Assembly (NCBI GenBank): GCA_038046785.1
Contig: JBBSVM010000006.1
Span: 101,875-165,874, forward strand
Origin: Thermoplasmatota archaeon
GTDB lineage: Archaea; Thermoplasmatota; E2; JACPAO01; JAHFTW01
Direction: 5' to 3'
Length of the DNA stretch: 64,000 nucleotides
Positions 6,111-48,430 of this stretch are shown here, in pieces. How positions within the stretch are numbered: the stretch's first letter is position 1; each line of letters opens with the position of its first letter. The notes under the pieces are model-generated. The model had not been told where the DNA came from. It worked only from the letters and a program-made list of their open reading frames with translations, and searched no databases. Position numbers and translations under genes: made by a program.

Positions 6111-6658
6111 CAGAACCACCCTTGCTTGGTGAGCTTGAATTCGCTGGTGCTGTGGCCGGGGTCGGGTTTGGGGCTGTAGGGCAGCCACCACGGGTTGTTG
6201 TCGTTCTGGTTCTCGAATTGGAAGTCGAGGAGGTAGGCGCCGAAGCCGCTCGCGGTGCTCCACTTGAAGGTCGCCTTGAACGTGCTCGTCTCGTCCTTCT
6301 CGACGCCCACGTTGATGCTCATGGGAGCCGAGTTGCCGTGGTTGCCGGGGTAGTACACGGTGGTGGTGATGGTGCCACGTCGGTTCCAGAACCAACTCGT
6401 TGCTTGGTCGGGATCCTCATACTTGGCCTCGCTCTCGTCGAGTTTGCCATCCTCCAACTTGCCGGAGTCACAATCGACGAGGCTGGCGTGGAAGCCCTCC
6501 GTGCCGTCCAGCTTGAAGTTGCAGATGACGGTGAGGTGCTTCGCCTTGAGCTGCTCGACGGTAAGGCCGGTCTCAGCACCTTTGGGTTTGACGCTGGGTC
6601 CGGCGCAGCCTGCGAAGAGCAGGGTGGCCACGAGGGCGATGGCGAGGAGGGGTTTCAT
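6110..6658 (-). CDS. lipoprotein, 182 aa
   Basis: ORF track. MKPLLAIALVATLLFAGCAG is a lipobox-like signal. It overlaps its neighbours at both ends. Confidence 0.6.
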   Translation of the reverse strand: MKPLLAIALVATLLFAGCAGPSVKPKGAETGLTVEQLKAKHLTVICNFKLDGTEGFHASLVDCDSGKLEDGKLDESEAKYEDPDQATSWFWNRRGTITTTVYYPGNHGNSAPMSINVGVEKDETSTFKATFKWSTASGFGAYLLDFQFENQNDNNPWWLPYSPKPDPGHSTSEFKLTKQGWF

Positions 6659-8901: not shown

Positions 8902-9128
8902 GTGGGTTCTCCGGGGTTGGGTCGCACGGGGCGGCCCAGCAGAATGGCAAGGGTGGCAGCCGAGGTGGCGGCGAGGATGGCGGGGAGCCATTGCCGGGTG
9001 ACGGCGAGGTAGAGGGAGAGGACGGCGAGGGCGTAGAGGAGGATGTAGTCGGCGAGTCCCTTGACGCGGCGGGCTCGCCGGTTGCGTCGGCGTTCTTCGT
9101 GGAGGATGCCGTAGAGGTGCAAGCTCAT
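8898..9128 (-). CDS. small membrane protein, 76 aa
   Basis: Internal Met of ORF 8898..9488, MSLHLYGILHEERRRNRRARRVKGLADYILLYALAVLSLYLAV... It has ATGA overlaps on both sides. Confidence 0.4.
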   Translation of the reverse strand: MSLHLYGILHEERRRNRRARRVKGLADYILLYALAVLSLYLAVTRQWLPAILAATSAATLAILLGRPVRPNPGEPT

Positions 9129-9433
9129 CGTTTCCTCCGGACGAGTTTGGTGGCGCCAATGGCGGAGCGGGCGGGCAGGGTTCCGGCCTTGACTGCGATG
9201 CCGATGAGTTGGGCGCCGAACTGGATGGCAAGGAAGGCGATGACGGCGAGGGGGAGGGCAAGGAAGCCGAAGAGCCAGCTGCGCCGGAAACTGATGTACA
9301 CCACTGCGCCAAGGGCGAGGGCGAGCAGGGTTTTGTGCGGCAGGCTGACCTTCACAGGTTGGCCTCCCAGTTGAGTTCGCCATCGAGTTGGGGAACATGG
9401 ACGGGGTCGAGGATAGTGTAGAGGTGGGTCCAA
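9125..9433 (-). CDS. small membrane protein (about 77-102 aa; start uncertain, possibly GTG near 9355)
   Basis: ORF track. Two TM helices, LLALALGAVVYISF and FLALPLAVIAFLAIQFGAQLIGIAV. Confidence 0.35.
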   Translation of the reverse strand: MDPPLHYPRPRPCSPTRWRTQLGGQPVKVSLPHKTLLALALGAVVYISFRRSWLFGFLALPLAVIAFLAIQFGAQLIGIAVKAGTLPARSAIGATKLVRRKR

Positions 9434-13619: not shown

Positions 13620-15356
13620 CTACAGCGGGTGCGCCTTGCTGGCTCGTCCGTCCGTTCCGAAGCCGAACTGGCCGCATACGCCGTAGGATTTGTCGAGGTT
13701 GTGCAGGGAGAGAATCTCGTCAAACGATGAGAAGTGGTCCACTTTCATCGTCACCGTTAGGTCCGTGAGCGCGGCGGAGCCGGTGGTGCGGACGGTCCAG
13801 TTTCCTTCGGCCGCATCCTGGGCGATGCCGGGTCCGGAGAGTAGGTAGGTGCCTTTGAGGTTGGGCTGCATGGGGTCGCCGGTTCGGCCGAGCATTAGGG
13901 TGGACTGGATGTTGCCGGCGGCGTCGATGACTTCGGTCTTCAGTTCGCTGGCGCGAGCGCCCGTTCCCGACAGGAACGCTTCGACCTCGATGGTGTTCAC
14001 CGAGCAGGGCATGCGGACGGGGAAGGTGAACTCGACTTGGGCGGGAGCAAGTGGCGCTGGGGCGCCGGTGACCGCCGGGGGGACGCCGAGGCTCGCCAGC
14101 TCGGTGTCGCTGTAGTCGCTCGGGATGTAGACTGGTTCTTGGTAGCCGATGCCGCCTGCCAATTCGGCGGGGAACGCATCACCGTGGCCTTCGAAATCGG
14201 CTCCGACGGTGAACTTGGTGTGCATGCCGCCGGGGCTCTGCTGGTCGTTGGCTTCGTGGTTGTTGACGTGGGTGTGGAAGACCCATGCGCCTTGGTTGTG
14301 GCCGATGATGAGGACATCGTAGCGCTCGGAGGGGCTGATGGCGAGCGTGTCCACCCAGTAGGGATCGGCGAGGGGAAGGCCGTCTTTGTGCGTGACGAGC
14401 ATGTCTTGGCCATGGGGGTGCAGGACCTCCTCGGTCTGGCCCGCGTTCAGGATGCGCAAACGCAACCGTTCCCCATCTTGGAGCGTCCAATGGCTCTGTT
14501 TTTGCTGGATGGTGTACGGGAAGGCGTGGCCGTTGAGGAGGAAGACGTCCGGCGTCGTGTCGAGGACCGGGTTGGCGCAGCCTGACGTGCCGGACACCAA
14601 GCAGCCGGGCGGGTGGGCGTGCGGGTTGATGCCAGGGATGGTCTCGACGATGTTGCGGGCCGCCGTCGAGAGCACCATGACGCCCTCTTGATCCACTTCG
14701 GGTTCGCGGCTGGTGTCCTGCGGCTCCACGATGAACATGCCGTACAGCCCCTGCATGACGTGGAACTGGGTGTCGACGTGGCAGTGGTACCAGAGCGTGC
14801 CGGGCTTCTTGGCGATGAAATCGTAGGTGATGCTGGGTGCGCCGCTGCCGCCACCGACGGCTTGTTGCGTGACGCCGGGCACGCCGTCGTCCTCGTTGTC
14901 CACGAATTGGCCGTGCCAGTGAATCGTGTGGGGGTGGAAGTGGGCGTGGGCGAACTCGACGACGATGCGGTCGCCTTGCTTGGCGCGGATGGTGGGGCCC
15001 GGGACGCTGCATGCGCTGCGTTCCCCTTCGCTGAGTTGGGGTGCGTCGGTGGGCAGGGGGTCGAAGTATTCGATGGCGGCCTTCGAGTAGGCATCGTTCT
15101 GGTCGAAGGGTTCAGCGCAGAACGCCCACAGATTCGCGCGCAGACCGGGGCTCGTTGTGCCGTCCCGGTTGCTGACTGGGTAGAGTTCGGTGTTGAAGAG
15201 GTCCACGACTTTCATCTTGAGGCGGATGGTGTTGCCAGTCTCCGGGACGTCGAAGTCGCCCGTGGGGGCGAACGGGTTTGCGCCCATGCATCCGGAGAGG
15301 GGGATGAGGAGGCTGACCAGGGCAATGACGGGAATGCGGGACGTGGCAGCAGGCAT
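13620..15356 (-). CDS. multicopper oxidase lipoprotein, 578 aa, with extra C-terminal domain
   Basis: ORF track. Lipobox LSGC. Copper-site motifs HPHTIHWHG and WYHCHVDTQFHVMQGLYG in the N-terminal domain. HPHGQDMLVTH and FHTHVNNHE in the second domain. Confidence 0.9.
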   Translation of the reverse strand: MPAATSRIPVIALVSLLIPLSGCMGANPFAPTGDFDVPETGNTIRLKMKVVDLFNTELYPVSNRDGTTSPGLRANLWAFCAEPFDQNDAYSKAAIEYFDPLPTDAPQLSEGERSACSVPGPTIRAKQGDRIVVEFAHAHFHPHTIHWHGQFVDNEDDGVPGVTQQAVGGGSGAPSITYDFIAKKPGTLWYHCHVDTQFHVMQGLYGMFIVEPQDTSREPEVDQEGVMVLSTAARNIVETIPGINPHAHPPGCLVSGTSGCANPVLDTTPDVFLLNGHAFPYTIQQKQSHWTLQDGERLRLRILNAGQTEEVLHPHGQDMLVTHKDGLPLADPYWVDTLAISPSERYDVLIIGHNQGAWVFHTHVNNHEANDQQSPGGMHTKFTVGADFEGHGDAFPAELAGGIGYQEPVYIPSDYSDTELASLGVPPAVTGAPAPLAPAQVEFTFPVRMPCSVNTIEVEAFLSGTGARASELKTEVIDAAGNIQSTLMLGRTGDPMQPNLKGTYLLSGPGIAQDAAEGNWTVRTTGSAALTDLTVTMKVDHFSSFDEILSLHNLDKSYGVCGQFGFGTDGRASKAHPL

Positions 15357-16911: not shown

Positions 16912-18300
16912 CTACACGTGGATGCCGAAGAGGGAGGGGATGAAGACGATGAGGAACGCGACGACGTAGCCGACGCCGAAGCCGATGCCGACTGGTGCTC
17001 TCTGTTCCCGCGCCCGCAGTTCGGGCAGCAGTTCGGCCAACGCGATGAAGATGAACGTGGCGGCGGCGAGGGCGATGAGGTGTCCGACGAGTGCTCCTTC
17101 TTCGATGATGGTGAGGCCGAGCAGGCTGCCCACGGGAGTCAATGCGGCCATGACGGCGATGCCAAGCAGGACGCGGCTCCGCTTCCAACCGGCAGCAAGG
17201 AACAGGCTGGCGGCGGCAATGCCGTCGGGGAACTGGTGGATGAGGACGGCGCCTGCTGCTGCCAAGCCGACGGCGTTGTCGAGTTCGAAGGCGGCGGGGA
17301 GAATCAGGCCGTCCACGAAGCGGTGGAAACCCAGGGCGAAGAACGCCAGGATGGCGAGGCCGCCGGCGTGGCTGGCGACCCGTTCGCGGCCGTGCTGGTC
17401 GTGTTCGCTGGCGCCGTGGCCGTGACTGCCGTGGCCGGAGCCGCTGTGGTTGTGTTCGCCGGCGAAGAAGTGGCGCACGAGGAAGAGCACGAGGAGCGCG
17501 AGGACGATGGTGTAGGGTGCTTCCGGGCTCAGTTCGAGGGCTTCGGGGACGAGGTCCAGCATGGCGATGGCCAAGAGGAGGCCGGCGGTGGCGCCGAGGA
17601 GGAAGTGGATGCGGCGCTGCGAGATGGTGCGGCCGGCGAGGACGACGGCGCCTGCGGCCAAGGTGATGGCACCGGCGAGGAGGGCGATGCCGAGGATGGC
17701 GGGAATGCCGGGGCCTTCGCCTGACGCAGGCTCCTCGGGCTCCGGCACGACGCCCTGTGGGTCGCTTTGCGTGATGGTGAAGGAGTGCAGTTTCGAGTCG
17801 AGGTTGCCGCACTGCACGGAGACCGATTGGCCGGCCATCGCGAGGCCCGTGCCGGTCTTGCTGAGTTTGAGCGCAAGCTGGACGTCGCCGGTGGCGTTCT
17901 GGAGGTCGCCAACGTCGAAGACCAATGCGGCCGGCGAGCTCACGGCTGCACCGGAACCATATGCGACGGCGTCGCTCAGGACAACCGCCGCGCCGAGCCG
18001 GAGTTCGCCGGCGAGCGTGAAGCCGGTGCCGGCGTTGGCGCCTTGGGCGAAGGCGACCGAGACCGCAACGGCTTGCGCTGGGAGGCCAACGGTTTGGTTC
18101 GTGAATGTTCCCGCGAACGTCTCGGTGACGCTTGCTGAGGTGGTGGCGCCGATGGTGAGGCAGGCGGAGGCCGCGCCTACCGCAAGGGACAGCGAGCCAT
18201 CACTCTGGAGATAGAGCGGAGCGGTCGCCGATGATGTTTGGGCGGCAGCTCCTGTGGTGGCAAGAAGGAGCGCGGCGAGGAGCAAGGTGACGCGGTTCAT
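16912..18300 (-). CDS. ZIP-family metal transporter with about 190-aa N-terminal ectodomain, 462 aa
   Basis: ORF track. Signal peptide, then an extracellular domain, then ZIP motifs: His-rich loop GEHNHSGSGHGSHGHGASEHDQHG, FHRFVDG and IHQFPDG. ATGA overlap with the upstream CDF gene. Confidence 0.8.
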   Translation of the reverse strand: MNRVTLLLAALLLATTGAAAQTSSATAPLYLQSDGSLSLAVGAASACLTIGATTSASVTETFAGTFTNQTVGLPAQAVAVSVAFAQGANAGTGFTLAGELRLGAAVVLSDAVAYGSGAAVSSPAALVFDVGDLQNATGDVQLALKLSKTGTGLAMAGQSVSVQCGNLDSKLHSFTITQSDPQGVVPEPEEPASGEGPGIPAILGIALLAGAITLAAGAVVLAGRTISQRRIHFLLGATAGLLLAIAMLDLVPEALELSPEAPYTIVLALLVLFLVRHFFAGEHNHSGSGHGSHGHGASEHDQHGRERVASHAGGLAILAFFALGFHRFVDGLILPAAFELDNAVGLAAAGAVLIHQFPDGIAAASLFLAAGWKRSRVLLGIAVMAALTPVGSLLGLTIIEEGALVGHLIALAAATFIFIALAELLPELRAREQRAPVGIGFGVGYVVAFLIVFIPSLFGIHV

Positions 18301-27234: not shown

Positions 27235-28848
27235 TCACTCGGGGTGGGCAGCGCAGTCTCCTCCAGCTTCCTTCAACTGCTCCACCGTCTCGTAGTAGTC
27301 AACCTGGACCGTCGCATCGATGCTCGTTGCGATGGCACGCCCCTTCACGGAAAGCGTGTAGTTCCCGTGCGGCAACTCGATGCCCGCCTCGGGGAACTCC
27401 TTCGACCACGACACGAAAGCTTGCGCGCCCAGCGTCTCCGTCGCGAGCGCCGCGCCATCGGCGTCACGCAGCGTTACCACCAGGCTATTGCCCGCCTGCA
27501 ACGCCATCATGTCCGCCTGGGCGGCCAAGCTGAACCGCAGCGTCCGAACCGCACAGCCATCCACAGGGAACGTGAAGACGGCCTCCGGCTCCATCACAGT
27601 CGGAGTGCTGGAGAGTTCCGCGTGGAACTCCTGCAGCAAGTCCGCCGGCAACTCCACAGGCGCCACATAGCCACAACCCGCAGGCAGTTCCGCTTTGTAG
27701 GCGCCATACTCGGACTCAAAGCCCGTGTAGACGAGCGGCGCCTCCATGCCGCCCGGGCTTGCGCCACAGTTCGTCTCATGGTTGTTGACGTGCGTGTGCA
27801 GAATCCAGGAACCAGGGTTGTTGGCCTGGAACACCACATCGTAGCGCTCGGCGGGACCGATGGTCAAGACGTCCACGTAGAACGGGGCCACAAGGGGTGA
27901 GCCGTCCCGGTGCGTGACAAACATGTCATGTCCGTGTGGGTGGATGGTCTCCACTGTGGTTCCCGCGTTCAGGATGCGCAGCCGAATCGTCTCCCCTTCC
28001 GCCATCTTCAACGCCGTCAATGGATCTTCATCCGTGAGCGGCGCACTCTTGCCGTTGATCATGAAAACGTCCGGCGTCACATCGACAGCTGGATTCTGGC
28101 ACCCTTGTTCTCCTGTGACGCCGCAGCCGCCGCCCGCCCGGTGCTGGGCGTGGGGGTCTACTTCTGTGCCAGCTGTGGCGGGAATTGCCTCGATGAGGCT
28201 GCGCTTTGCGGTTCCTAAGACGTGCAGGTAGTCGCGATCCACGCCCTCCGGTTCAGCGGACTTGTCCTGTGGCTCGACGATGAAGCCCCCGTAGAGGCCT
28301 TGCATGACGTGGAATTGGGTGTCGACATGGCAGTGATACCACAGCGTTCCGGCCTTCTTGGCGATGAACTCGTAACGGTAGGTGTCGCCGGGCTTCACCG
28401 AGTCCTGGTTGACTCCAGGTGTACCATCGGACTTGTAGGGGACGAGTTGTCCGTGCCAGTGAATGGTGTGGGGGTGGACGTGCCTGTTCTCGAAATCGAC
28501 GATGACGCGGTCGCCCTGGTTCACACGGAGGGTCGGGCCCGGCACGCTGCACTTTCCTTTCGATTCCTCCGGGACGTTGCCGGACTGCTCGCGGTACTCG
28601 ATGGCAGCCAGAGAATATGCGTCGGTGGCATCAGCAGGCTCTGCGCAGAAGGCCCATAAATTCGCCTTCAGGCCGGGATAAATGTCGGCCTCCTCCAAGT
28701 CCACCACCCACATGCGCAGGTGCACGGTCTTGCCGGTCTCCGTGAAACGGGTTCCAGGTTCAAGGGGCTCAAGATTGCTTGAGTTGGACCCGGCGCAGCC
28801 CGCAAGCGTAGCGGCGACCAGAACGAGAGAAACATAGAGCGCTTTCAT
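27235..28848 (-). CDS. multicopper oxidase lipoprotein, paralog 2, about 537 aa
   Basis: ORF 27235..28869, Met8 start. Lipobox LAGCAG. It has the same HPHTIHWHG, WYHCHVDTQFHVMQGLYG, HPHGHDMFVTH and HTHVNNHE motifs as 13620..15356. Confidence 0.9.
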   Translation of the reverse strand: MKALYVSLVLVAATLAGCAGSNSSNLEPLEPGTRFTETGKTVHLRMWVVDLEEADIYPGLKANLWAFCAEPADATDAYSLAAIEYREQSGNVPEESKGKCSVPGPTLRVNQGDRVIVDFENRHVHPHTIHWHGQLVPYKSDGTPGVNQDSVKPGDTYRYEFIAKKAGTLWYHCHVDTQFHVMQGLYGGFIVEPQDKSAEPEGVDRDYLHVLGTAKRSLIEAIPATAGTEVDPHAQHRAGGGCGVTGEQGCQNPAVDVTPDVFMINGKSAPLTDEDPLTALKMAEGETIRLRILNAGTTVETIHPHGHDMFVTHRDGSPLVAPFYVDVLTIGPAERYDVVFQANNPGSWILHTHVNNHETNCGASPGGMEAPLVYTGFESEYGAYKAELPAGCGYVAPVELPADLLQEFHAELSSTPTVMEPEAVFTFPVDGCAVRTLRFSLAAQADMMALQAGNSLVVTLRDADGAALATETLGAQAFVSWSKEFPEAGIELPHGNYTLSVKGRAIATSIDATVQVDYYETVEQLKEAGGDCAAHPE

Positions 28849-29037
28849 GGGAGGCCTCCAAGAGGACATGTGCGGACTTCCGCCAGGTGGATTAAGGGTT
28901 ATTTGACGACCTTGGAGAAACGACAGAGAAAAAGGGGCACTCCCGAACCAAATCGAGTGCCAGACCGCTGCCCGTTTGTTTGACAGACTCCGCCAGTTGT
29001 CTCAACCATTATCATCGGGGTTGCTCTGCGATGTGCC

Positions 29038-37944: not shown

Positions 37945-38814
37945 TTACCGAATTTGCTTCCATGAGGCTCCCGAGTCCTCGGTCTCGAGAATCTGACCGC
38001 TTCCCGTCGCTGCGAATGCATGGGTGCTGGCGCTCTTGGCAAAGGCAAAGAGGACTTGCCCGGGGGCGTCGTCGATGAGGCGGTGGTTGTTCTTGCTCCA
38101 CGTGAGGCCGCCATCGACGCTGCGATAGGTGGATCCGGTTTTTCCGTCGCCAGTGCCCGCCAGCAGGACGGTTCCAGCCGTCGAGACGGCGACGGATGAC
38201 ACCAAACCGGAAACAGGGCCAGCAAGCTTCGTCCAATTCGCGAACGCGGTCAAGTCGGTCGTCTTGTAGAGTCCATTGTTGGTCGCCGCGAAGAGGGCCT
38301 CTGCCGTGCCGCCCAGGGCAAGCACGGATGCCGGTGGCGAGGCGTAGTCCGTCCACGTTGCGCCCCCGTCGCGCGAGACCTTGGTCTTGCCCTGCCAGGA
38401 GCCAGCCAAGTGGCCTTCGCCACTGCTCAGGGCGGTCAAGGCGTGGAAGTCGACTTGCCCCTTCAGACTCCGTTGCTCCCACGTTTCTCCGCCATCGGTG
38501 GACCGACGCAAGCCCAGGTGGACGCCGCCATACGCGCGAGGATCGTCAGGGTGGCCGCTGGAGTAGAACACTCCGTCTCGCACGAGGTCCTTGGTGAATC
38601 CCATGTAGTCGTAGGGGTCCCCGATGAACTCCCACTGCCAAGTGTTGCCGTCGGGCACACCGCGGGCGAGGCCGTGGTGGGACGCCAGGTAGAGGTTGCC
38701 AGACACTTCGTCGTAGGCGAGACCGTGCACGTGAGAGAGCTTGAGTTTGTCGCCGGTGGGTTGACTACAGCCAGCCAGTGCTGCGGCGACGAGGACTGCG
38801 GCCAGGACTTTCAT
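37945..38814 (-). CDS. BNR/Asp-box repeat lipoprotein, paralog 2, 289 aa
   Basis: ORF track. Lipobox LAGCSQ. STDGGETW, SRDGGATW and SVDGGLTW repeats. Confidence 0.8.
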   Translation of the reverse strand: MKVLAAVLVAAALAGCSQPTGDKLKLSHVHGLAYDEVSGNLYLASHHGLARGVPDGNTWQWEFIGDPYDYMGFTKDLVRDGVFYSSGHPDDPRAYGGVHLGLRRSTDGGETWEQRSLKGQVDFHALTALSSGEGHLAGSWQGKTKVSRDGGATWTDYASPPASVLALGGTAEALFAATNNGLYKTTDLTAFANWTKLAGPVSGLVSSVAVSTAGTVLLAGTGDGKTGSTYRSVDGGLTWSKNNHRLIDDAPGQVLFAFAKSASTHAFAATGSGQILETEDSGASWKQIR

Positions 38815-38821
38815 GAGTCAC

Positions 38822-39178
38822 CTAGCGGCGCCACAGAGTCCAGCGCGACGTTGGGGCTTCGGTTCCGGCCACGGCCTTGACGCCGTAGCCGGCCTCTTTG
38901 ACGGCGGCGACCATGGTGGTGGTGGACGCGCCGGGCTTGGCGCGCACTTGGGCCGTCTCCTTCTTCAGGTTCACCGTGGCTTCGGTGACGCCCGGCGTCG
39001 AGCGCAGGGCTTTCTCGACGTGGTTGACGCAGTTCTGGCACGTCATGCCGGTGATTTGCAGCGTGAAGGCTTGTTCCGGGGGGCTCACGAGGCCAAGCAC
39101 GGTTGGCGGGGCTTTACCCCTTGTCCTTGCCATTTGGAAAGACGGGCATCTTGCAATCAAACGGCAAGTTGTGGCCAC
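38822..39178 (-). CDS. copZ: copper chaperone CopZ (HMA domain), 103-118 aa
   Basis: ORF track. FTLQITGMTCQNCVNHVEKAL is the GMTCxxC metal-binding fold. Alternative start Met16. Confidence 0.8.
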   Translation of the reverse strand: MATTCRLIARCPSFQMARTRGKAPPTVLGLVSPPEQAFTLQITGMTCQNCVNHVEKALRSTPGVTEATVNLKKETAQVRAKPGASTTTMVAAVKEAGYGVKAVAGTEAPTSRWTLWRR

Positions 39179-39230
39179 GATTGCTTGACGTTCGCAAACT
39201 TCAAGCCTGGGAAATCATCCAAGTGCTTGC

Positions 39231-39851
39231 ATGGAACTCGACGCCATCGACATGGGCATCCTGCGCGGCCTGCGGCAGGACGCCCGCACATCCTTCCGAA
39301 CCTTGGCCGGGCAGCTTGGCACCACGACGCCGACGGTGAGTGCTCGCGTCAAGCGCCTGGAGAGCCTGCGCATCATCCAAGGCTACCGCGTCGACCTCGA
39401 CCCGCAAGCCCTCGGCGGCTCCCTGCAGGTCCTGCGCCTCGAGGTGCGCCCCGCGGGTCTCCACCGCGTCACGGAAGCCCTGACCGAGATGCAAGGCGTC
39501 GAGGAGATCATGGCCATCAGCGGCGGTTCCTTGCTCGTCAAGGTTCGCCTGCGACCCCCCGTTGTGACGTTCGATGGCCTGCACCAATCCATTGCGGGTC
39601 TCGACGACGTCATCCGCTACGATGCCTGGGAGGTTTGGAGCGTGCGCCAGCGCAGCGCCGACATCGCTGTCACGGGCCTTGAGCTGCGGTGCCACACCTG
39701 CCACAGCCCCATCCAAGGGGAGCCGGTGCGCAGCAAGATCGGCGGCGAGGAACACCTCTTCTGCTGTCCGTTGTGCAAGAAGCAATTCCAGGAACGACAC
39801 GCCGCCGCAACGGCGCGCACGAAATCGGAGAAAGCCGCGCGTAGCGGCTAG
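39231..39851 (+). CDS. copR: copper-responsive regulator CopR type: Lrp/AsnC HTH fused to C-terminal TRASH domain, 206 aa
   Basis: ORF track. N-terminal Lrp HTH (MGILRGLRQDARTSFRTLAGQLGTTTPTVSARVKRLE). C-terminal CHTCHSPI...(19 aa)...CCPLCKKQF is a TRASH Cys motif. Divergent from copZ. Confidence 0.85.
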   Translation: MELDAIDMGILRGLRQDARTSFRTLAGQLGTTTPTVSARVKRLESLRIIQGYRVDLDPQALGGSLQVLRLEVRPAGLHRVTEALTEMQGVEEIMAISGGSLLVKVRLRPPVVTFDGLHQSIAGLDDVIRYDAWEVWSVRQRSADIAVTGLELRCHTCHSPIQGEPVRSKIGGEEHLFCCPLCKKQFQERHAAATARTKSEKAARSG

Positions 39852-40203: not shown

Positions 40204-43200
40204 CTATCTTGTTTGCCTTCCATTGGTTGACCTCGCGGGCTTTGTCGGGGGGCGGGCCGCTGGCGCCTTTCGGGGCGCAACCGGCATGACCGCTGGCGTC
40301 GGTGAAGGGCGCACGTGCCCGTTTGTGCCCGCGCGAGGTTGGCTTGCAGAATGGAGGGAAGCCGCGGAACCGTCGCTGGCACGCGCCGCGTTTCCGTTCT
40401 GCGGAGCCATCTCAACCGGCCGCAACACGATTGAGCGCTGCAAATCCTGCACGGTTCGCTGCAGCTCAGTGATGGTTTGGCGCAGCTGCTCCGTTTCCGA
40501 AGCTGCCCCTTGCAATTCGGGTTGGGGAGGCCGCAACGACGCCACGGGTCGGGCCGGGGTCCACGGCGCGGCCGCTGGCGCGCTCACGCCGTTTCGCGAG
40601 TGTGCGGACGAGCCATTGTGTACTGGAACTGCCACGAAGGCGACGGGGATTTCCACGCGGCTTTTGCCGTTGCGCACGACAGGGGATTTGCCCGGGCCGA
40701 CGTGGGCGGGTCGCCAGCGTCGCAGGAGATTGGTGTTGGCAACGACGCTGACGCTGGAGAGCGCCATGGCTGCGCCCGCCAGGATGGGGTGCAGCAGGAC
40801 CGGTCCGCCGAACAAGGGCCACGCGACGAAGAGGCCTGCCGCGAGGGGGATGAGGATGACGTTGTAGCCGAAGGCCCAGGTCAGGTTCTGGTAGACTTTG
40901 CGCAGTGTTGCCTTCGACAGGTCGAGGGCGGCGACGGCGTCACGCAGGTCGTCCCGCAACAGGATGACTTGGCCGGCTTCCTTGGCGACATCCGAGCCGG
41001 CGCCCATGGCGATGCCGAGGTCGGCGGCCACGAGGGCGGGGGCGTCGTTGACGCCGTCGCCAACCATGGCGACGCTGAGGCCCTGGGATTTGAGTTTGTT
41101 CACGACGTCTGCTTTGCCCTGGGGCAGGACTTCGGCAAACACTTGGTCGATGCCGACCTGCTTGGCGATGGCTTGCGCGGTCTGGCGGTTGTCGCCAGTC
41201 AGGAGCGCGACCTTGAGGCCGCGCTTGCGGAAGGCGGCAATCGCTTCCGCGCTGGTGGGTTTCACGGTGTCAGCAATCGCAACCCATCCCAGTAGGAGTG
41301 TGCCGGACGCGACGCCAATGATGGTCTGCCCCCGGCTCCGTCCCGCAGCCAGAGATGTTTGGTGCTGAATGGTCTGCACGCCTTCCTGGGTGAGCCACTC
41401 GGGCTTGCCTACACACACCGGGTCGGCTCCCAGCCAGGCACGCACGCCTTGGCCGGGAACGTTCTCGAACCGCTGCACGGGTCGAGCTGTGATGCCCTTT
41501 TGGGTCGCGTAACGAACCACCGCCGCAGCGAGGGGGTGCTCACTTGTTGCCTCGACGGAGGCGGCGACCGACAGGAGGGTGTGGAGTTGGCCGCTTGCGA
41601 CGTGGATGTTCGTCACTTGGGGCTTGCCTTGGGTGACGGTGCCGGTCTTGTCGAGGATCACGACGTCGATCTTGCGGGTTCCTTCGAGTGCTTCGGCGCC
41701 TTTGATGAGGATGCCGTTCTCGGCGCCTTTGCCCATGCCGACCATGATGGCCATGGGGGTCGCCAATCCCATGGCGCATGGGCAGGCAATCACGAGGATG
41801 GCCACTGAGGACAGTAGGCCCAGGGTCAAGGGCGTGTAGCCGGCGTCACGGGCCACGTCGGCGCCGATGGTCATCCAGGCGGCAAACGTGAGAACAGACA
41901 GGAGGAGGACGACGGGGACGAAGCGTGCCGTGATGGCGTCGACGATGCGCTGAATGGGAGCCTTGGCCGATTGGGCGTCCTCGACGAACTGGACGATTTG
42001 GGCCAACATCGTCTCGGAGCCGACCTTGCTGGCTTGCATGGTCAGGGCGCCGTTCTGGTTGACGGTGGCTCCGATGACGACGGAGCCCGGGGCTTTCTCC
42101 ACGGGGATGGACTCGCCGGTGATCATGCTCTCGTCGATGGCGCTGTTGCCCTTGAGGACACGGCCATCGGTCGGAATTTTCTCACCAGGTTTGACCAGGA
42201 GCCTGTCGCCGACCTTGACTTGCTCAAGGGGAATCTCAATCCATTGGCCGTTGCGTTGCACGCGGGCATTCTTTGCGCCCAACTCCAGGAGCCTCCGGAT
42301 GGCTTCGCTGGCCTTGCTCTTGGAGCGCGTCTCCAAGTATTTGCCCAGTAGGATGAGGGTGACGACGACTGCGGCCGTCTCGTAGTAGACGCCCATGCCG
42401 TGGAAGGCGGGCACGAAGGCGACCGAGATGGAGAATAGGTAGGCGACGCCTGTGCCGGTGGCCACGAGTGTGTCCATGTTGGCGCTCCAGCGACGCAGCG
42501 CCTTCCATGCGCCGACAAAGAATGTCGCGCCGCTGTAGAGCATGACGGGGGTGGCGAGCAGGAACTCCGTGAGCATCTGCCATTCAAAGCCAAGAATCTC
42601 CCCGGGAATCATGAAGAAGCCGAGCGTGTTCCCCATGGCGACGACCACGAGCGGCGCGGTGAAGATGGCCCCGATGATGAAGCGACGAAGCCGGATACGG
42701 GCCTCGTTGCGCTCCGGCGCGGCATCTGCTTGGCTGGAATCTCGGCCGCTTGGAGCCGTCCGGACGCCGTAGCCAGCGGCTTCGACGGCGGCCACAAGTT
42801 GCTCGCGTTGAACTCCTGGGGCAAGGGCGACGGAGGCGCTTTCGGTGGCCAGGTTGACGCTCGCATTCTTGACGCCGGGAACCTTGCCAAGCGCCTTGGT
42901 GACATGGCCGACGCAGCTGGCGCACGTCATGCCCGTGATTTCCAGTTTGAGTTGGCTCGGTCCGTTGCCAGGAGTGGTTGCCGCGGGTCGCGGGGCCGGT
43001 GGTACGAGCTTGTAGCCGGCGCTGCTGACGGCGCGTTGCACGTCGCTGGGCTGGACCTTCGCGGGGTCGGCGGTGATGCGGAGGCGTTCCGTGGCGAGGT
43101 TGACGTCGGCTTGCTGGATGCCGGGCAATTTTCGGACGGCGGTCTCGATGGTGCGCACGCAGCTGGCGCACGTCATTCCCTGCACGGCGTACGTGGCTTG

Positions 43201-43212
43201 GATTTGGGACAT
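40204..43212 (-). CDS. copA: copper-translocating P1B-type ATPase CopA with two N-terminal HMA domains and about 190-aa C-terminal extension, 1002 aa
   Basis: ORF track. Two GMTCASC motifs, [22 protein letters not shown]. The C-terminal tail after TM8 is Pro/Ala-rich with a coiled-coil segment [23 protein letters not shown]. Confidence 0.95.
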
Positions 43213-43233
43213 GGCTGCACTCCCTCTTATGTG

Positions 43234-45504
43234 TCAGGCCTTAACCGGATTGCCGCTTCCAAGTGGAAAGCTTCCCGGGGGGCCTTGGTTGCTGGTGGAG
43301 TGGGTGGGCTGCCACCGGCGCAAGAGCAGGCTGTTGAGCATGACGCTCGTGATGGAGAGCGTCATGGCGACACCCGCCAGCATAGGATCCAGACGAGTGG
43401 CGGAGCCGAACAGGGGCCGTGCCACGAGGAGGCCAGCGGCGACCGGGATAAGCAGTGCGTTGTAGGCGAACGCCCAGGCGAGGTTCTGGTGGACTTTGCG
43501 CAGGGTGGCGCGGGCCAAGTCCAAGGCTGCGGGGATGCCCAGCAAGTCGTCGTCGAGGAGGGCGATGCCGCCGACGTTGCCGGCGCGGCCGCCTACGGTG
43601 ATGCCGAGGTGCGCTTCCGCCATGGCGGCGGCGTCCGTTGTGGCGTCACCGACGAGGGCGACGCGACTGCCTTCACCCTTCAGGTGGCGGATGGTGGCCG
43701 CTTGGTCGGATGCGGGGACGTCGGCCAGGATGCGGGTGATTCCAAGGGGTTTGGCCAGGGCGTGCGCAGTCTGGGCGTGGTCGCCGGTGAGCAGCACGAC
43801 TTGCAGGCCCTGGTGGCGCAAGGCGTCCAGGGCGCGGGCAGCATTGGGGCGAACGGGGTCGGCCGTGGCGATGATTCCGAGGCTGGTTCCGTCTTGGGCG
43901 ATGCCAACGACGGTCTTGCCTTCGTTGCGCAGGCGCTCGATGTGGTACTGTTGTTCGGCAAGTGAGATGCCTTTGCTCGCAAGCCAGGCGGGAGTGCCGA
44001 CGAGGACCTGTTTTCCTTCGACCTGGGCCGTGAAGCCCTTGTCGGGGAAAGCCTCGAAGGATTCGGCTTGCGGGATGGCGTTGCCTTGGGCGCGGCGCTG
44101 GATGGCGATGGCCAGGGCGTGGTCGCTCTTGGCGGCAGCCGAGGCGGCGAGGATCAGCAGCTCGTCTGCATTTTTGGGGCTGAGGACGAGCGTCGTGGCG
44201 GGCAGGGTGTCGGTGACTTCCGGGTGCCCCGTTGTTAGGGTGCTCTTCTTGATGACGACGGTGTCGAGTCCGCGCGCGGCTTGCAGGGCTTCGCCGCCGC
44301 GGAGGATGATGCCCTTCTCGGCGCCGCGCGACGTGCCCGTCAGGACCGCCATGGGAACGGCCAGGCCGAGGGCGCAGGGGCAGGCGATGATGAGCACGGT
44401 GAGAAGGCTCACGAGGGCCATGGAGGATGGCGTGAAACCGGCATCTACTGCGATGGGGGCTCCCAGGGTGCTCCAAAAAATGGAGGCCGCGAAGGCGATG
44501 ACGAGGACGGCGGGGACGAAGTAGCGCACGATGCGGTCGACGGCGTGCTGGATGGGAATCTTGGAGGTCTGCGCCTGTTCCAGCATCTGGCCGGTGGCCG
44601 TGTCCTTGGCGGTGGGCTCGAGCATCCGGCGTAGCGTGGCGCGGGCGCGGCGTTGCGCGCGCTGCTCGATGAGTCGACCCAGCAGGAGCAGCGTGACGAC
44701 GACGGCCGCGGTCTCGAAGTAGACCCCTTGCCCACTGTCGAGTCCAGGCCAGATGAGGATGGCCGTCGAGTAGCCGAACGCGGTACCTACGCCAGTCGCT
44801 ACAAGGGTGTCCATGGTGAGGTGGCGGCTGCGGTAGGCGTTCCACGCACCTCGGAAAAATGGCGCGCCACCATACACGACGACGGGTGCAGCCAAGGCGA
44901 ATTGGAGCCAAAGGTCGCCCATCGCCATGCCATCGTGGCCTCCGTGGCCGCCCATGTCCATGCCGGACATGTCCATCCCCATCGCGGCCATCTCTTCGGC
45001 CGTCATGTTCTCCATCCCTTCCATGCCGTGCATACTGTGCATGCCTTCCATCCCCTCCATGCCTTCCATTCCACCCATTCCGGACATGTGGTCGCCGATG
45101 CCCAGGAACATCATGATGTGGGGCCCCATGGCGATGGCGAACAGGGGAATGGTGAGTGCGGCGGCGATGATGAGGCGGCGCGTCTCGCGGCGGTCGCCCT
45201 TTTCTTCCTCCTGCGGCGCGGAGTCTTCGCGGACGCTGTAGCCACTCGTCTTGACGGCATCGACGAGGGCTTGCCGGGACAGGTCCTTGGTGCCATGCAC
45301 CTGGGCCTTTCCGGTCGCGAGGTTGACGACGGCGCTGTGCACGCCAGGCGTGGTGCGCAGCCCTTTCTCGATGGTGGCGACACAGCTGGCGCACGTCATC
45401 CCGGCGACGCGAAGCGTGTACGTGGAATCAAGAGGGGCTTCAGGCACAGGGCTTCCAGGAGGCGGGTGTCTATACTGCTTCTTCTTTCCAAACGTCAAGG
45501 ACAA
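43234..45504 (-). CDS. degenerate P1B-ATPase paralog: one HMA, Met/His-rich extracytoplasmic loop, CPC retained, actuator domain deleted, DKTGT degraded to KKSTL
   Basis: ORF track. GMTCASC; loop HMSGMGGMEGMEGMEGMHSMHGMEGMENM...GMDMSGMDMGGHGGHDGMAMG between TM1 and TM2; IIACPCALG; about 95 aa including TGES missing between TM4 and TM5 compared with copA; VVIKKSTLTTG replaces [13 protein letters not shown]; GDATTDAA replaces GDGVNDAP; SDHAL replaces SEHPL. Confidence 0.85.
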   Translation of the reverse strand: MSLTFGKKKQYRHPPPGSPVPEAPLDSTYTLRVAGMTCASCVATIEKGLRTTPGVHSAVVNLATGKAQVHGTKDLSRQALVDAVKTSGYSVREDSAPQEEEKGDRRETRRLIIAAALTIPLFAIAMGPHIMMFLGIGDHMSGMGGMEGMEGMEGMHSMHGMEGMENMTAEEMAAMGMDMSGMDMGGHGGHDGMAMGDLWLQFALAAPVVVYGGAPFFRGAWNAYRSRHLTMDTLVATGVGTAFGYSTAILIWPGLDSGQGVYFETAAVVVTLLLLGRLIEQRAQRRARATLRRMLEPTAKDTATGQMLEQAQTSKIPIQHAVDRIVRYFVPAVLVIAFAASIFWSTLGAPIAVDAGFTPSSMALVSLLTVLIIACPCALGLAVPMAVLTGTSRGAEKGIILRGGEALQAARGLDTVVIKKSTLTTGHPEVTDTLPATTLVLSPKNADELLILAASAAAKSDHALAIAIQRRAQGNAIPQAESFEAFPDKGFTAQVEGKQVLVGTPAWLASKGISLAEQQYHIERLRNEGKTVVGIAQDGTSLGIIATADPVRPNAARALDALRHQGLQVVLLTGDHAQTAHALAKPLGITRILADVPASDQAATIRHLKGEGSRVALVGDATTDAAAMAEAHLGITVGGRAGNVGGIALLDDDLLGIPAALDLARATLRKVHQNLAWAFAYNALLIPVAAGLLVARPLFGSATRLDPMLAGVAMTLSITSVMLNSLLLRRWQPTHSTSNQGPPGSFPLGSGNPVKA

Positions 45505-45537
45505 CCAGGATAACAGGAAAGGACCTGGCGTAGGTCA

Positions 45538-45813
45538 ATGGAAGCAGTCAAGACGAAACCGGGTCACGGGCAGGAAGGTCACGACATGCAATCCTGTGGT
45601 CACTGCGTGGTGGACCCGAAGCGGAACAAGTCGTCCCTGGTTGCCTGGATCGTTGCGGGAGTCGCTGTCGTCTTTGCCATCGTCGTCTACTTCTCACGCG
45701 CGGGGTCACTGGGCAGCAACCTGGCGGGCGGTGGCAGCCTCGCACTGTTGGCCGTCTTGGCTTGCCCCTTGATAATGGGTGCCATGATGTTCATGATGGG
45801 CAAACGTCACTGA
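45538..45813 (+). CDS. small membrane protein with CxxC and Met-rich C-terminus, 91 aa
   Basis: ORF track. QSCGHCVVDP, two TM helices, then ACPLIMGAMMFMMGKRH. Its start lies 33 nt from the start of the divergent degenerate ATPase. Confidence 0.55.
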   Translation: MEAVKTKPGHGQEGHDMQSCGHCVVDPKRNKSSLVAWIVAGVAVVFAIVVYFSRAGSLGSNLAGGGSLALLAVLACPLIMGAMMFMMGKRH

Positions 45814-45829
45814 GGAGACACAAAGTTCA

Positions 45830-46234
45830 ATGACCGCACCGGTTTGGCTCGCAGGCATGCGCTGGTTGCTCGTGGTCCCTCTCCTGCTTGCCGGCTGCGC
45901 CGCCAACGACGCCCCGGATGCCCCATTGAGTGACGAAAGTGCAAGGCCGGATCCAATCATGAAGATGGTCCCGATGGTCGACGATTCGATCAAGAACGGA
46001 AACTTCGCCATCCGTACCATGGACCAGGCCATGTACATGAACGAAGGAGCGCGTGCCCACACCGTCACGGTCCACAAGGTGGGTGACGCTGCCACAACGA
46101 CGAGGATTGATCGGACCTTGCAGCCTGACCAGACGTACACTTACACCTTCGACGCGCCAGGAACATACCATGTCTACTGCCGCTTGCACGGCACTACAAC
46201 CTCTGGAATGACGTCGACCGTTGAAGTCGCCTAG
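45830..46234 (+). CDS. cupredoxin lipoprotein (plastocyanin-like), 134 aa
   Basis: ORF track. Lipobox LLAGCAAN. AHTVTVH, YHVYCRLHGTTTSGM type-1 Cu ligands. Confidence 0.8.
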   Translation: MTAPVWLAGMRWLLVVPLLLAGCAANDAPDAPLSDESARPDPIMKMVPMVDDSIKNGNFAIRTMDQAMYMNEGARAHTVTVHKVGDAATTTRIDRTLQPDQTYTYTFDAPGTYHVYCRLHGTTTSGMTSTVEVA

Positions 46235-46372: not shown

Positions 46373-46747
46373 TCAGATGGGGGCGGGGGTGACGCGGACG
46401 CCGTCCAGTTTCGTCAATGCGTCTAAGAGTTCGTGGATGCGGGGTCCCTCCCCGTGCAGGATGAGGGCGTCCACGCAGGTGCCTTCCAAGTGGTGGTGGA
46501 GGGAAGTGGTCACGAGGTCTTCGAAGCGGTGCAGGACTTTGCCGACTTTTTCCTGGTTCTTGTCGGCGACGTAGACGAGGGTGAGGGCGAGGTGGACGTG
46601 GCCTTCGAACTCCATCTGGTGGCTGGTGATGAAGTGGTGCAGGGCGTCGCGGATGGCGCTGGAGCGGGAGTCGTAGCCGAAGTGCTCGACGAGTTTGTCG
46701 AACTTGTCCAGTTCAGCGCCGGAAAGGGAGATGGAGATGACGGCCAT
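46373..46747 (-). CDS. nikR: NikR-like RHH metal-responsive regulator, copy 2, 124 aa
   Basis: ORF track. Near-identical to 21600..21974, differing at about 12 positions. Confidence 0.85.
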   Translation of the reverse strand: MAVISISLSGAELDKFDKLVEHFGYDSRSSAIRDALHHFITSHQMEFEGHVHLALTLVYVADKNQEKVGKVLHRFEDLVTTSLHHHLEGTCVDALILHGEGPRIHELLDALTKLDGVRVTPAPI

Positions 46748-46780: not shown

Positions 46781-48430
46781 TTAGCCTCGGACGTGGAGGG
46801 TGAAGGGCAGCTCGTCGAGGAAGACGTCGCCGGTCTGGAAGGAGAGCGTGACATCGTAGGCTCCCGAGCGGACGAGCAGGAGATTGTGGACCATCCAGGC
46901 GCCGGCACCGTTGGGGATGGCGTCGAACGAGGAGGCGCCCAGGCTGGGGTCGGCTTGGGAGACGAGGGTGAGGCGTAGGCAGGAGTCGCGGCCACACGTC
47001 GCGGTGCCTTCGTTGGCACCCGTGTCAATGCGGGTGACGGTGATGGAGGGGTGCGAGGGTTGCCCTGCCAAGGGGGCAGGGTCGAAGACGATGCGCGCCA
47101 TGTAGGTGTCGCCGTGCGCCATGATTTCGATGGCTTCTGGAGCGGTGGCCATGACGGGTGGGGCAATGGCGGTCAGGATGCCGGCCAATGCGAGGACTGC
47201 GGCTCCCACAACGGCCTCCATGGCGATGGTGCGGCGAAACGCCGTGGCTCGGGCCGGCTCGTCCTGAGACGTGCGGGCGAGGCGGCGCAGGTGGACGAAA
47301 CGGTTGATGGCGGCCAAGCCGACCATGGCAGCGGCGGCGGCGACCTTGAAACCGAGGACGGTTCCATAGCGGGAGTCGAAGAGGCTGAAGGGGTCGGCGA
47401 CGAGGTCGGGTCCCAGGATGAGGAGGGTCGAGAGTGTGCCGGTGAGGGCGACGATGAGGACCGCCCAGAGCGCCACCTTCGAGAAGGCGAAGGCGCGCTC
47501 CAGGATGGTGCGAGCCGTGAAGGTGCGGTGGCGGGTGAGGTCGACGAGGAGGATGAAGAGGCCACCGACCCAGGCGGCACCGGCGAGGTAGTGGATGGCG
47601 TCGATGGAGATGGCCAAGATGCCGCTGCCGCTGCTGTGCGCAAAGCGGGCACTGGCGAGTGCCGCAACGGCGGCAAGCAAGAGGGGGAGAGCGGGACGCA
47701 GACGGCCATGCCGCAGAGCGTACATCCCAAGCAGGAGGAGAGCGGCACCTGCGAGGATGCGAATTGCCAGGTTGAGGCCGAGGGTGGTGCCGAGGAAGGA
47801 GGGGAGTGAGAGGTTGGCGGAGCTGCTGGTGTCGAGGAGTAAGCCGATAGCGCCGAGGCCAACCAGTGCACCCGCGATGGCGGTGAGTCCGGAGGACCAT
47901 GTCGCGTCGAGGCTCTGGCCGCGCGGGAGCATTAGGCGGTAGAGACTGACGCCGACAGCGAGGGCGAGGCCGGCGTAGGCGATGACGCGCCACCCCATCG
48001 AGGCGGGCGACTCGTCGGCGGTTTGCATGGACGAAGCAGGGGGTGTCGCGTCTCCGATGGCGAAACCGAAGGATCCCGTGGTGACGTGGCCGTCTGCGCC
48101 GGAGAGGGCGCGCCAGGTCACCAAGTAGGCGCCGGGGCCGAGCGGTTCGAGGGAGACGCGCATCGTGCGGTCGTCGCTTGGGTCGAAGGTCGTGTCGTCG
48201 CGGTCCACGCGGCGTCCGGAGGAGTCGGTGACGGTGAGGCGGGATGCTGCGTGGTCAGGCGTCTCCGTCAACGTAACCTGGACGGTGGTTGGCGCGGCCG
48301 AGAGGTGTTCGCCTTCGGAGGGAACGCTGGAGGCGTAGACAGCGTGCGCTGCCACAGTGGGAACCGTGAGCAGGAGGGCCAGGATTCCTCCCAGCAACCA
48401 AAGGTTCCGGAGACTGGAATTGGCCCGCAC
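46781..48430 (-). CDS. copCD: CopC-CopD fusion copper resistance protein with extra C-terminal domain, 549 aa
   Basis: ORF track. Signal peptide then HAVYASSVPSEGEHL (CopC His start). Polytopic CopD-like membrane domain. C-terminal soluble domain. Confidence 0.85.
   Translation of the reverse strand: MRANSSLRNLWLLGGILALLLTVPTVAAHAVYASSVPSEGEHLSAAPTTVQVTLTETPDHAASRLTVTDSSGRRVDRDDTTFDPSDDRTMRVSLEPLGPGAYLVTWRALSGADGHVTTGSFGFAIGDATPPASSMQTADESPASMGWRVIAYAGLALAVGVSLYRLMLPRGQSLDATWSSGLTAIAGALVGLGAIGLLLDTSSSANLSLPSFLGTTLGLNLAIRILAGAALLLLGMYALRHGRLRPALPLLLAAVAALASARFAHSSGSGILAISIDAIHYLAGAAWVGGLFILLVDLTRHRTFTARTILERAFAFSKVALWAVLIVALTGTLSTLLILGPDLVADPFSLFDSRYGTVLGFKVAAAAAMVGLAAINRFVHLRRLARTSQDEPARATAFRRTIAMEAVVGAAVLALAGILTAIAPPVMATAPEAIEIMAHGDTYMARIVFDPAPLAGQPSHPSITVTRIDTGANEGTATCGRDSCLRLTLVSQADPSLGASSFDAIPNGAGAWMVHNLLLVRSGAYDVTLSFQTGDVFLDELPFTLHVRG

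Follow-up and report, generated by a model that had tools for sequence, protein, structure and literature searches.

A CopA paralogue without an actuator domain or phosphorylatable Asp, predicted to bind Cu(I), is conserved directly upstream of copA in a small clade of uncultured archaea

The subject of this study is a 64,000-nt stretch of DNA from a Thermoplasmatota archaeon (assembly GCA_038046785.1, contig JBBSVM010000006.1, positions 101,875 to 165,874 of the forward strand), which we call the window, and within it a gene for a paralogue of the copper-transporting P1B-ATPase CopA, here named pseudo-CopA. The protein has lost the actuator domain (A-domain) and the phosphorylated Asp of a P-type ATPase, retains nearly all residues of the Cu(I) path of CopA, and carries a Met-rich loop predicted to face outwards. 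The gene lies directly upstream of a complete copA, and is kept under purifying selection. The explanation that we favour, with modest confidence and on the grounds of sequence, is that pseudo-CopA is a non-catalytic, ATP-independent, Cu(I)-binding partner of CopA that derives from CopA itself, and that it would serve as an accessory or regulatory subunit rather than as an independent transporter.

The maximal open reading frame (ORF) occupies 43234..45504 on the minus strand, opens with a TTG at 45504 and encodes 756 aa; residue numbers given here refer to this ORF. The true start is probably the GTG at 45447..45445 (V20 of the ORF), since the start codons of all orthologs align there in an alignment of the promoter regions. 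The coding sequence would then be 43234..45447(-), with a TGA stop at 43236..43234, and the protein would have 737 aa; the database cluster P0001 is 100% identical to it. An earlier note on this DNA had described an intact paralogue of 756 aa. The frame is indeed intact, and it is the length that probably needs shortening. Comparison with the adjacent CopA using BLASTP gave two collinear blocks, with 34% identity over residues 14-320 and 45% over residues 306-742, and left about 90 residues of CopA (~316-405) unmatched. The HMMER alignment with LpCopA (3rfu) has an E-value of 3.6e-98. Pfam recognises an N-terminal HMA domain with the motif GMTCASC (residues 28-93, 45226..45423(-), E = 3.3e-15), a HAD-type Hydrolase domain (E = 4.6e-24) and only positions 94-181 of the 181 in the E1-E2_ATPase model, which the adjacent CopA spans in its entirety. 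The score for TIGR01525 (heavy-metal P-type ATPase) is 353.7 against a cutoff of 346.25, and that for TIGR01511 (Cu-translocating) is 322.9, below the cutoff of 397. As the TIGR01525 cutoff is narrowly exceeded, annotation pipelines call pseudo-CopA an ATPase, as happened with cluster P0006.

The family to which pseudo-CopA belongs was defined by a search of 5.8 billion clustered proteins, and comprises 14 clusters at 90% identity (P0001-P0014). These match the query with 654-1568 bits, 47-100% identity and more than 93% query coverage, and none carries an E1-E2_ATPase Pfam annotation. The next match after P0014 falls to 444 bits and is an ordinary CopA. Loss of the A-domain, loss of the phosphorylated Asp and the Met-rich loop occur all together in each of the 14 members.

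The extent of the A-domain loss is clear from the alignment with LpCopA. Chain positions 223 and 319 of that structure are bridged by query residues 298 to 305, and the missing segment of about 95 residues (224-318) is thus the A-domain with its TGE loop. A short helical linker at the junction (residues ~298-305, 44590..44613(-)) connects M2 to M3. The TGES columns of the motif alignment are gaps in 14/14 members. A hidden A-domain, displaced by a frameshift, was considered and rejected: the other frames over the junction are GC-rich spurious ORFs, and the deletion is in frame and present in all orthologs.

The remaining catalytic motifs are degenerate. The phosphorylated Asp of DKTGT is found in none of the 14 members, its place being taken by K, T, S, G, A or E. 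In the window copy the motif has become KKS-TL (residues 419-423, 44236..44250(-)) through a further one-residue deletion, with K419 at the position of LpCopA D426. The motif alignment gives GDATTDAA for GDGxNDxP (residues 619-626, 43627..43650(-)) and SDHA for SEHP in the nucleotide-binding domain (N-domain; residues 433-545, 43870..44208(-)). An intact TGD is present in three members, the phosphate-binding Lys in one and the Asn of GDGxND in two, while KTG following the lost Asp persists in 12/14. The second Asp of GDGxND is the sole invariant motif residue of the phosphorylation domain (P-domain); the His of SEHP in the N-domain is invariant too. Because the replacements at the phosphoryl-transfer sites vary between members, the pattern indicates a long-standing relaxation of constraint and no new chemistry. 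All of the motif readings of the earlier note were correct, as was its claim that the whole A-domain including TGES has gone; the mapping onto the LpCopA structure that it proposed yields the gap and the K419/D426 correspondence given above.

The HAD-type P-domain with its inserted N-domain is still recognisable as a fold by Pfam, AF2 and Foldseek. Residues of the adenine pocket in the N-domain (equivalents of AfCopA E457, H462, G490xG492 and G501) are retained in 12/14 members; two of them are missing from the window copy, where Glu is replaced by Ala and GxG reads DKG, with loss of the first Gly. Since both the A-domain and the phosphorylatable Asp are absent, an ATP-driven Post-Albers cycle cannot, by what is established for P-type ATPases (PMC13460109), be run by pseudo-CopA, and this predicts that neither Cu-dependent ATP hydrolysis nor an acyl-phosphate intermediate will occur.

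In order to follow the Cu(I) path, residues were mapped to LpCopA and AfCopA numbering via HMMER alignments, and their functional roles are those that we take from published CopA structures and mutagenesis. The CxxC of the HMA domain and the GG kink in helix MB are invariant in all 14 members. So are the entry triad on the cytoplasmic side (equivalents of LpCopA M148, E205 and D337), the transmembrane Cu(I) site CPC in M4 (residues 375-377, 44374..44382(-)), YN in M5 and the Met of M6 (LpCopA M717), and the exit-side equivalents of LpCopA E189 and M711, found within YFETAA and DPM. Throughout the family the M5-M6 segment (residues 666-730, 43315..43509(-)) keeps YN, DPM and MTLSI. The MxxSS motif of M6 keeps its Met and first Ser throughout, and all 14 members have Ile in place of the second Ser (AfCopA S715, LpCopA S721). 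The Cu(I)-path residues, with the exception of this second Ser, are thus seen in the alignments to be conserved while the phosphoryl-transfer residues drift. The GMTCASC and CPC motifs named in the earlier note are present as described; its statement that the transmembrane core and ion site were kept holds for CPC, YN and the eight helices, and needs a small correction at M6, where MxxSS reads MxxSI. We also noted that the partner CopAs have HP[I/A] (window CopA residues 806-823, ~40744-40797) where LpCopA has its exit Met (SPM, M711). DPM being invariant in the pseudo-pump, it is the inactive paralogue that has kept the exit-side Met and the active CopA that lacks it.

The second distinguishing feature is the extracellular loop between helices MA and MB (residues 128-195, 44920..45123(-)), which contains GMEGMEGMEGM and GMDMSGMDMGG repeats. 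In the window copy this loop has 69 aa, of which 20 are Met (29%, compared with 1.7% elsewhere in the protein), 18 Gly, 12 Asp or Glu and five His, with no Lys or Arg. Across the 14 members the loops are 46-127 aa long and contain 21-29% Met and 0-4 Lys/Arg. The earlier note had reported the gain of a Met/His-rich loop of roughly 55 aa between the first two helices. Its richness in Met is upheld, its length is greater, and His is found in only five of the 14 loops, being absent from nine, so that the conserved composition is Met/Gly/Asp/Glu. The lack of Lys and Arg in the loop, together with the Arg-rich cytoplasmic linkers that flank it, supports a location on the outer side of the membrane. 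The insertion point of the loop corresponds to LpCopA M100, at the mouth of the exit, and in 14/14 members clustered MxM/MxxM motifs are placed between MA and MB, in a predicted outward-facing position.

The reading frame is intact in all 14 clusters, down to 47% identity. Independent assemblies come from at least nine samples, among them European Nucleotide Archive (ENA) groundwater and forest soil data, JGI, Logan runs and NCBI metagenome-assembled genomes, and this independent recovery of the gene excludes a frameshift or assembly artefact. Ratios of nonsynonymous to synonymous change (dN/dS) were calculated by the Nei-Gojobori method for the four closest orthologs, with dS of 0.53-0.73. 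For these close pairs dN/dS was 0.13-0.22 in pseudo-CopA against 0.11-0.21 in the partner CopA; in distant comparisons nonsynonymous changes accumulated 1.4-3 times faster in pseudo-CopA than in CopA. By region, the values were 0.04 for M5-M6, 0.11 for both HMA and M3-M4, 0.18 for the Met-rich loop, 0.21-0.24 for the P-domain and 0.27 for the N-domain, so that every domain lies below 0.4. Hence pseudo-CopA is kept under purifying selection in every region. A faster decay of the window copy was considered and rejected, distances to the more distant locus L002 being about equal; lineage-specific substitution counts carry no information on this point, as the window copy is the outgroup of its subclade.

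Collectively, these data bear on the suggestion of the earlier note that the gene is a repurposed pump scaffold and that its integrity argues against simple decay. The loss of A-domain and Asp in homologues elsewhere, which it had put forward as the way to tell these apart, is joint in every family member. The result clearly favours a conserved degenerate architecture over random decay and so supports a repurposed scaffold, as do the purifying selection, the number of clusters and the synteny with copA in 10/10 loci. All three functions that the earlier note had suggested for such a scaffold, a Cu(I) sensor, a passive conduit and a membrane chaperone for CopA, stay in contention.

The family appears to be small and narrowly distributed. 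A profile search of 1.84 billion representatives at 50% identity recovered one family representative only (P0009), and the rest of the top 150 matches were normal CopAs with DKTG. When 185,579 GTDB species genomes were scanned with a family-specific alignment of the junction, one true locus was found, in one genome; the other 14 matches were ordinary CopAs with TGE, DKTG and GDGxND. A further candidate, P0260, whose coordinates fitted, was rejected as a normal CopA with a YHS-type N-terminus. The taxonomic labels of the orthologs conflict: loci L009 and L007 (CAZXUC010000001.1) are labelled 'uncultured Halobacteriales archaeon' and P0006 (GCA_054606395.1) 'Thermoplasmatota archaeon'. A haloarchaeal origin was rejected, as the cytoplasmic proteins of the window are not acidic (isoelectric points 6.5-8.9), and the Halobacteriales label is doubtful.

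The relationship between pseudo-CopA and its partner was examined with a neighbour-joining tree on 633 shared columns with 100 bootstraps. The 14 pseudo-CopAs are monophyletic in 100/100 replicates and are sister to the clade of partner CopAs, likewise with 100/100. The next CopA outward, P0122, belongs to a copZ-copA pair without an extra gene. The simplest history suggested by this tree is a single tandem duplication of the CopA of this lineage, followed by remodelling of one copy.

An AF2 model built on the alignment of the 14 sequences (pLDDT 73.9, pTM 0.67) has eight transmembrane helices (MA, MB and M1-M6), with M4 broken at CPC. The P/N module is modelled with pLDDT of 85-93 and the Met-rich loop is disordered. 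Foldseek aligned the P/N module with the CopA crystal structures 3a1c and 3a1e at TMt 0.90-0.92 and root mean square deviations of 1.5-2.1. The best global matches were E1-state structures (TMq 0.68 for 7r0g, which comes from an E1 study (PMC9433437), and 0.76 for 7xuk), with about 0.48 for the E2P structures 4bbj and 3rfu. These matches are weak evidence for an E1-like resting conformation, because the missing A-domain biases the structure comparison.

The genomic setting of pseudo-copA is constant. A complete copA follows immediately downstream on the same strand in 10/10 loci, with gaps of -4 to 103 nt, and the partner CopAs have two HMA domains, TGES and DKTGT wherever the contig extends far enough. 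The placement directly upstream of copA that had been claimed is thus true of the window and of all ten loci. In the window the partner is a canonical CopA of 1002 aa (40204..43212(-)) with two HMA domains, MALSS and a C-terminal extension of about 150 aa. The distance from the pseudo-copA stop to the copA ATG, previously given as 22 nt, measures 21 nt (43213..43233(-)) and contains a Shine-Dalgarno-like sequence, AAGAGGGAG. The extension of the partner CopA (40204-40680(-)) is Pro/Ala-rich with a coiled-coil-like stretch; it is absent from orthologs of 847-851 aa, and a longer form is found in loci L003 and L006 (928 and 958 aa).

Upstream of pseudo-copA lies a divergent promoter region (45448..45537(-)) identified from the alignment of orthologs, in which conservation extends over some 60 nt. 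A 14-nt box, TTGACGTTTGGAAA, at 45485-45498(-) is part of it, as is a TATA-like GTATAGA (45469-45475) that precedes the GTG by about 25 nt. A second copy of the box, TTGACGTTCGCAAA (39185..39198(+)), is located between a copZ-like HMA gene (38822..39178(-)) and an Lrp/TRASH regulator gene (39231..39851(+)), both identified by family matches. The search for the box thus gave two matches in the window against 0.27 expected. The box is inverted in the upstream regions of two more distant loci, L002 and L006, and that of L002 also contains a perfect palindrome, TTGACGTTCGTCAA. The shared box suggests a common copper regulon and may be the operator to which the TRASH regulator binds. From the arrangement of genes and conserved promoter, pseudo-copA and the complete copA are read as an operon of two genes in which pseudo-copA comes first.

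The divergent promoter also faces a gene for a 91-aa two-helix membrane protein (45538..45813(+)) with HGxxGH...C.HC (CxHC) and LACPLIMGAMMFMMGKRH motifs, for which neither Pfam nor NCBIfam gave a significant match. Homologues of about 90 aa occupy the same position in eight of the nine loci that have upstream sequence (L001 9636-9911, L007 9635-9910, L008 6312-6587, L002 9524-9727, L003 2889-3068, L024 5611-5889 and L025 5539-5811). Their C-terminal helix is highly conserved (...LACPLxMGAMMxMMRKGH), and the protein as a whole, a possible third component of the module, is more conserved than the pseudo-pump. A third component of the module may thereby have been found.

Further metal-related genes form an island in the window: two multicopper oxidases, a ZIP transporter, a cupredoxin, a NikR-like ribbon-helix-helix (RHH) regulator and a CopC-CopD fusion, at 13620-15356(-), 27235-28869(-), 16912-18300(-), 45830-46234(+), 46373-46747(-) and 46781-48430(-). 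Multicopper oxidases, a cupredoxin and CopC-CopD are also encoded in the orthologous loci, as are Csp and YHS proteins. A BNR/Ycf48-like beta-propeller lipoprotein of 288-289 aa (37945-38814(-)) is found near the copper genes in several loci (also L001 4474-5343, L007 8754-9620 and L006 1053-1919); it matches the NCBIfam F510_1955 family with E = 1.2e-45, below the cutoff of that family. Two very long ORFs at 1652-5281(-) and 6655-9312(-), of 1209 and 885 aa, had no Pfam match at E <= 1e-4. At its own C-terminus pseudo-CopA bears the motif FPLGSGNPVKA (43237..43269(-)), the sole copy in the window, which is conserved as FPxGSGNPVKA in P0001-P0009.

If pseudo-CopA is a partner of CopA, it would be a 'half pump' that rests in an E1-like form without ATP cycling. 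At its cytoplasmic face, the entry and CPC sites would be loaded with Cu(I) by CopZ or by the HMA domain of the protein itself. At the outer face, the Met-rich loop would form a thioether trap for Cu(I) beside the point of release from CopA, where it would accept or hold the exported ion, for example for the nearby multicopper oxidases and cupredoxins, and limit its re-entry. Several points weigh against this explanation. Synteny alone is no proof of a physical partnership with CopA. A static acceptor would not obviously need an entry site, CPC and HMA domain that are all intact, and the joint invariance of these elements would fit a real passage of Cu(I) across the membrane equally well. A partnership also leaves the retained P/N module unexplained, adenine pocket included, and the second Ser of MxxSS is lost throughout the family. 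The E1-like shape of the AF2 model may just reflect the absent A-domain and the shallow alignment of 14 sequences, and with so tiny a family the general importance is limited. We also put forward, tentatively, a bolder form of the same idea: that pseudo-CopA is a P-type scaffold without ATP cycling but with a working ion path, an obligate non-catalytic subunit of CopA that would allow passive Cu(I) passage or use its Met-rich loop for gating or receiving, possibly under nucleotide control via the N-domain. The P-type ATPase superfamily would then have, to our knowledge, its first class of pseudo-enzymes.

The main rival to a partnership with CopA is a passive Cu(I) conduit, a uniporter or channel in which Cu(I) moves downhill because the gate formed by the A-domain and the phosphorylation switch have gone. 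The Met-rich loop would collect Cu(I) in the manner of the Ctr1 ectodomain and hand it via CPC to the HMA domain or CopZ, as a controlled uptake that could load cuproenzymes folded in the cytoplasm or feed the TRASH sensor, with CopA re-exporting any excess. The translocation path is complete and does not vary at either face of the membrane, its exit mouth is the exact point at which the loop is inserted, and M5-M6 is the region under strongest constraint; that entry, CPC and exit residues are all invariant together is better explained by a conduit than by a partnership. By the known logic of Ctr1, a step from low-affinity Met outside to high-affinity thiolate inside, with an inside-negative potential, would require no ATP, and CopC-CopD, generally seen as an uptake pair, is encoded in the same resistance island. 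An importer ahead of an exporter on one promoter would, however, set up a futile cycle under copper stress, and ion conduction by a P-type ATPase without cycling is known only when a toxin wedges the pump open. In addition, the AF2 model resembles E1, a state with a normally closed outer gate, and the site-II Ser has become Ile. We regard a conduit as doubtful on this balance.

Less probable again is a sensor derived from a transporter (a 'transceptor') or an allosteric regulator, in which Cu(I) at the loop, CPC and HMA domain, and possibly a nucleotide, would shift the P/N module or the C-terminal tail and so modulate CopA or another partner. The yeast sensors Snf3/Rgt2 and Ssy1, which derive from transporters, provide a conceptual precedent. 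The P/N module is folded and selected, the adenine pocket persists in most members despite the drift of the phosphoryl-transfer residues, and the invariant C-terminal motif of P0001-P0009 resembles a docking peptide. Against this, the locus already has a cytoplasmic copper sensor in the Lrp/TRASH regulator, and an output domain or signalling partner is not evident. The window copy has moreover lost two residues of the pocket, and nucleotide sensing is therefore not essential in its lineage. The two remaining explanations are contradicted by the data. A functionless gene, whether a decaying duplicate or the product of misassembly or a frameshift, would agree with the loss of all classical catalytic motifs, the extra deletion in the window copy and the faster nonsynonymous evolution in distant comparisons; the intact frames, low dN/dS, invariant metal ligands, conserved promoter and synteny and independent assemblies make it very improbable. 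Scarcely credible, finally, is a pump kept active by non-canonical chemistry or by a separate A-domain acting in trans. KTG is kept in most members and neither the SEHP His nor the second Asp of GDGxND varies, but the position of the nucleophile has no common replacement, the phosphate-binding Lys and the Asn are lost in most members, and a stand-alone A-domain gene was not seen in the conserved neighbourhood.

With the P1B-1 pumps themselves (LpCopA, 3rfu/4bbj; AfCopA, 7r0g; and the CopA of the window) pseudo-CopA shares the HMA domain, the helices, the Cu(I) path and the P/N folds. It differs in lacking the A-domain with TGE and the Asp, in its degenerate TGD, Lys and GDGxNDxP, in MxxSI, in the loop of 46-127 aa and in its own C-terminal motif. 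Judged by these alignments it is by descent a P1B-1 ATPase, yet one without the defining catalytic features of the class. Transport scaffolds that have lost active transport are known from other superfamilies, such as CFTR, an ATP-binding cassette (ABC) pump turned channel, ABC heterodimers with a degenerate site, and the transceptors Snf3/Rgt2. As in pseudo-CopA, the ligand path is kept and energy coupling is lost, often beside an active paralogue, although these superfamilies are unrelated to P-type ATPases. No P-type ATPase counterpart of such a loss was found in the literature, subscription-only papers excepted. Cu(I) is bound outside the cell by Met motifs in the Ctr1 ectodomain, CusF, PcoC/CopC and CueO, which feed a membrane pathway or an oxidase. 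The GMEGMEGM and GMDMSGM thioether repeats of the pseudo-CopA loop resemble these in composition only; there is no sequence homology, and the motif here is a loop of a pump scaffold and a predicted Cu(I) binder.

Two described systems combine a copper or metal pump with a helper. PacL1/2/3 are encoded upstream of the mycobacterial P1B-ATPases CtpC/G/V in 'effluxosomes' and are thought to act as chaperones or scaffolds (PMC13460109). The likeness lies in a metal-binding membrane protein encoded directly upstream of a P1B-ATPase in one operon, as for pseudo-copA in all ten loci, but the PacL proteins are small, single-pass and unrelated to the pump, whereas pseudo-CopA is a full-size pump paralogue with no PacL-type domain in Pfam. 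Maturation of the multicopper oxidase CutO needs CopA and the Cu-binding helper CutF (PMC8456105). Here too an extracytoplasmic Cu-binding helper links CopZ-CopA export to the metallation of an oxidase, and multicopper oxidases are present in the island of the window; CutF differs in being small, soluble or periplasmic and unrelated to P-type ATPases. Described P-type ATPases, P1B pumps included, are defined by their A/P/N catalytic architecture (PMC13460109). Literature searches on A-domain-less, inactive or pseudo P-type/P1B ATPases and on Thermoplasmatota copper systems gave no such class, again with the exception of subscription-only papers, which agrees with the view of the earlier note that no functional class like this had been described.

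The ecological reach of these findings is capped by the narrow range of the family, which is confined to a single small clade of uncultured archaea from soil and groundwater. For annotation they carry a warning, as such genes at present bear the name 'heavy metal translocating P-type ATPase' and would be taken for pumps. For the P1B-ATPases, pseudo-CopA represents a natural separation of the ion pathway from its engine, kept next to an active CopA, and would offer a test of whether an uncoupled P1B membrane domain is locked in E1 or leaky. In archaea with a single membrane it may represent a missing extracellular acceptor for Cu(I).

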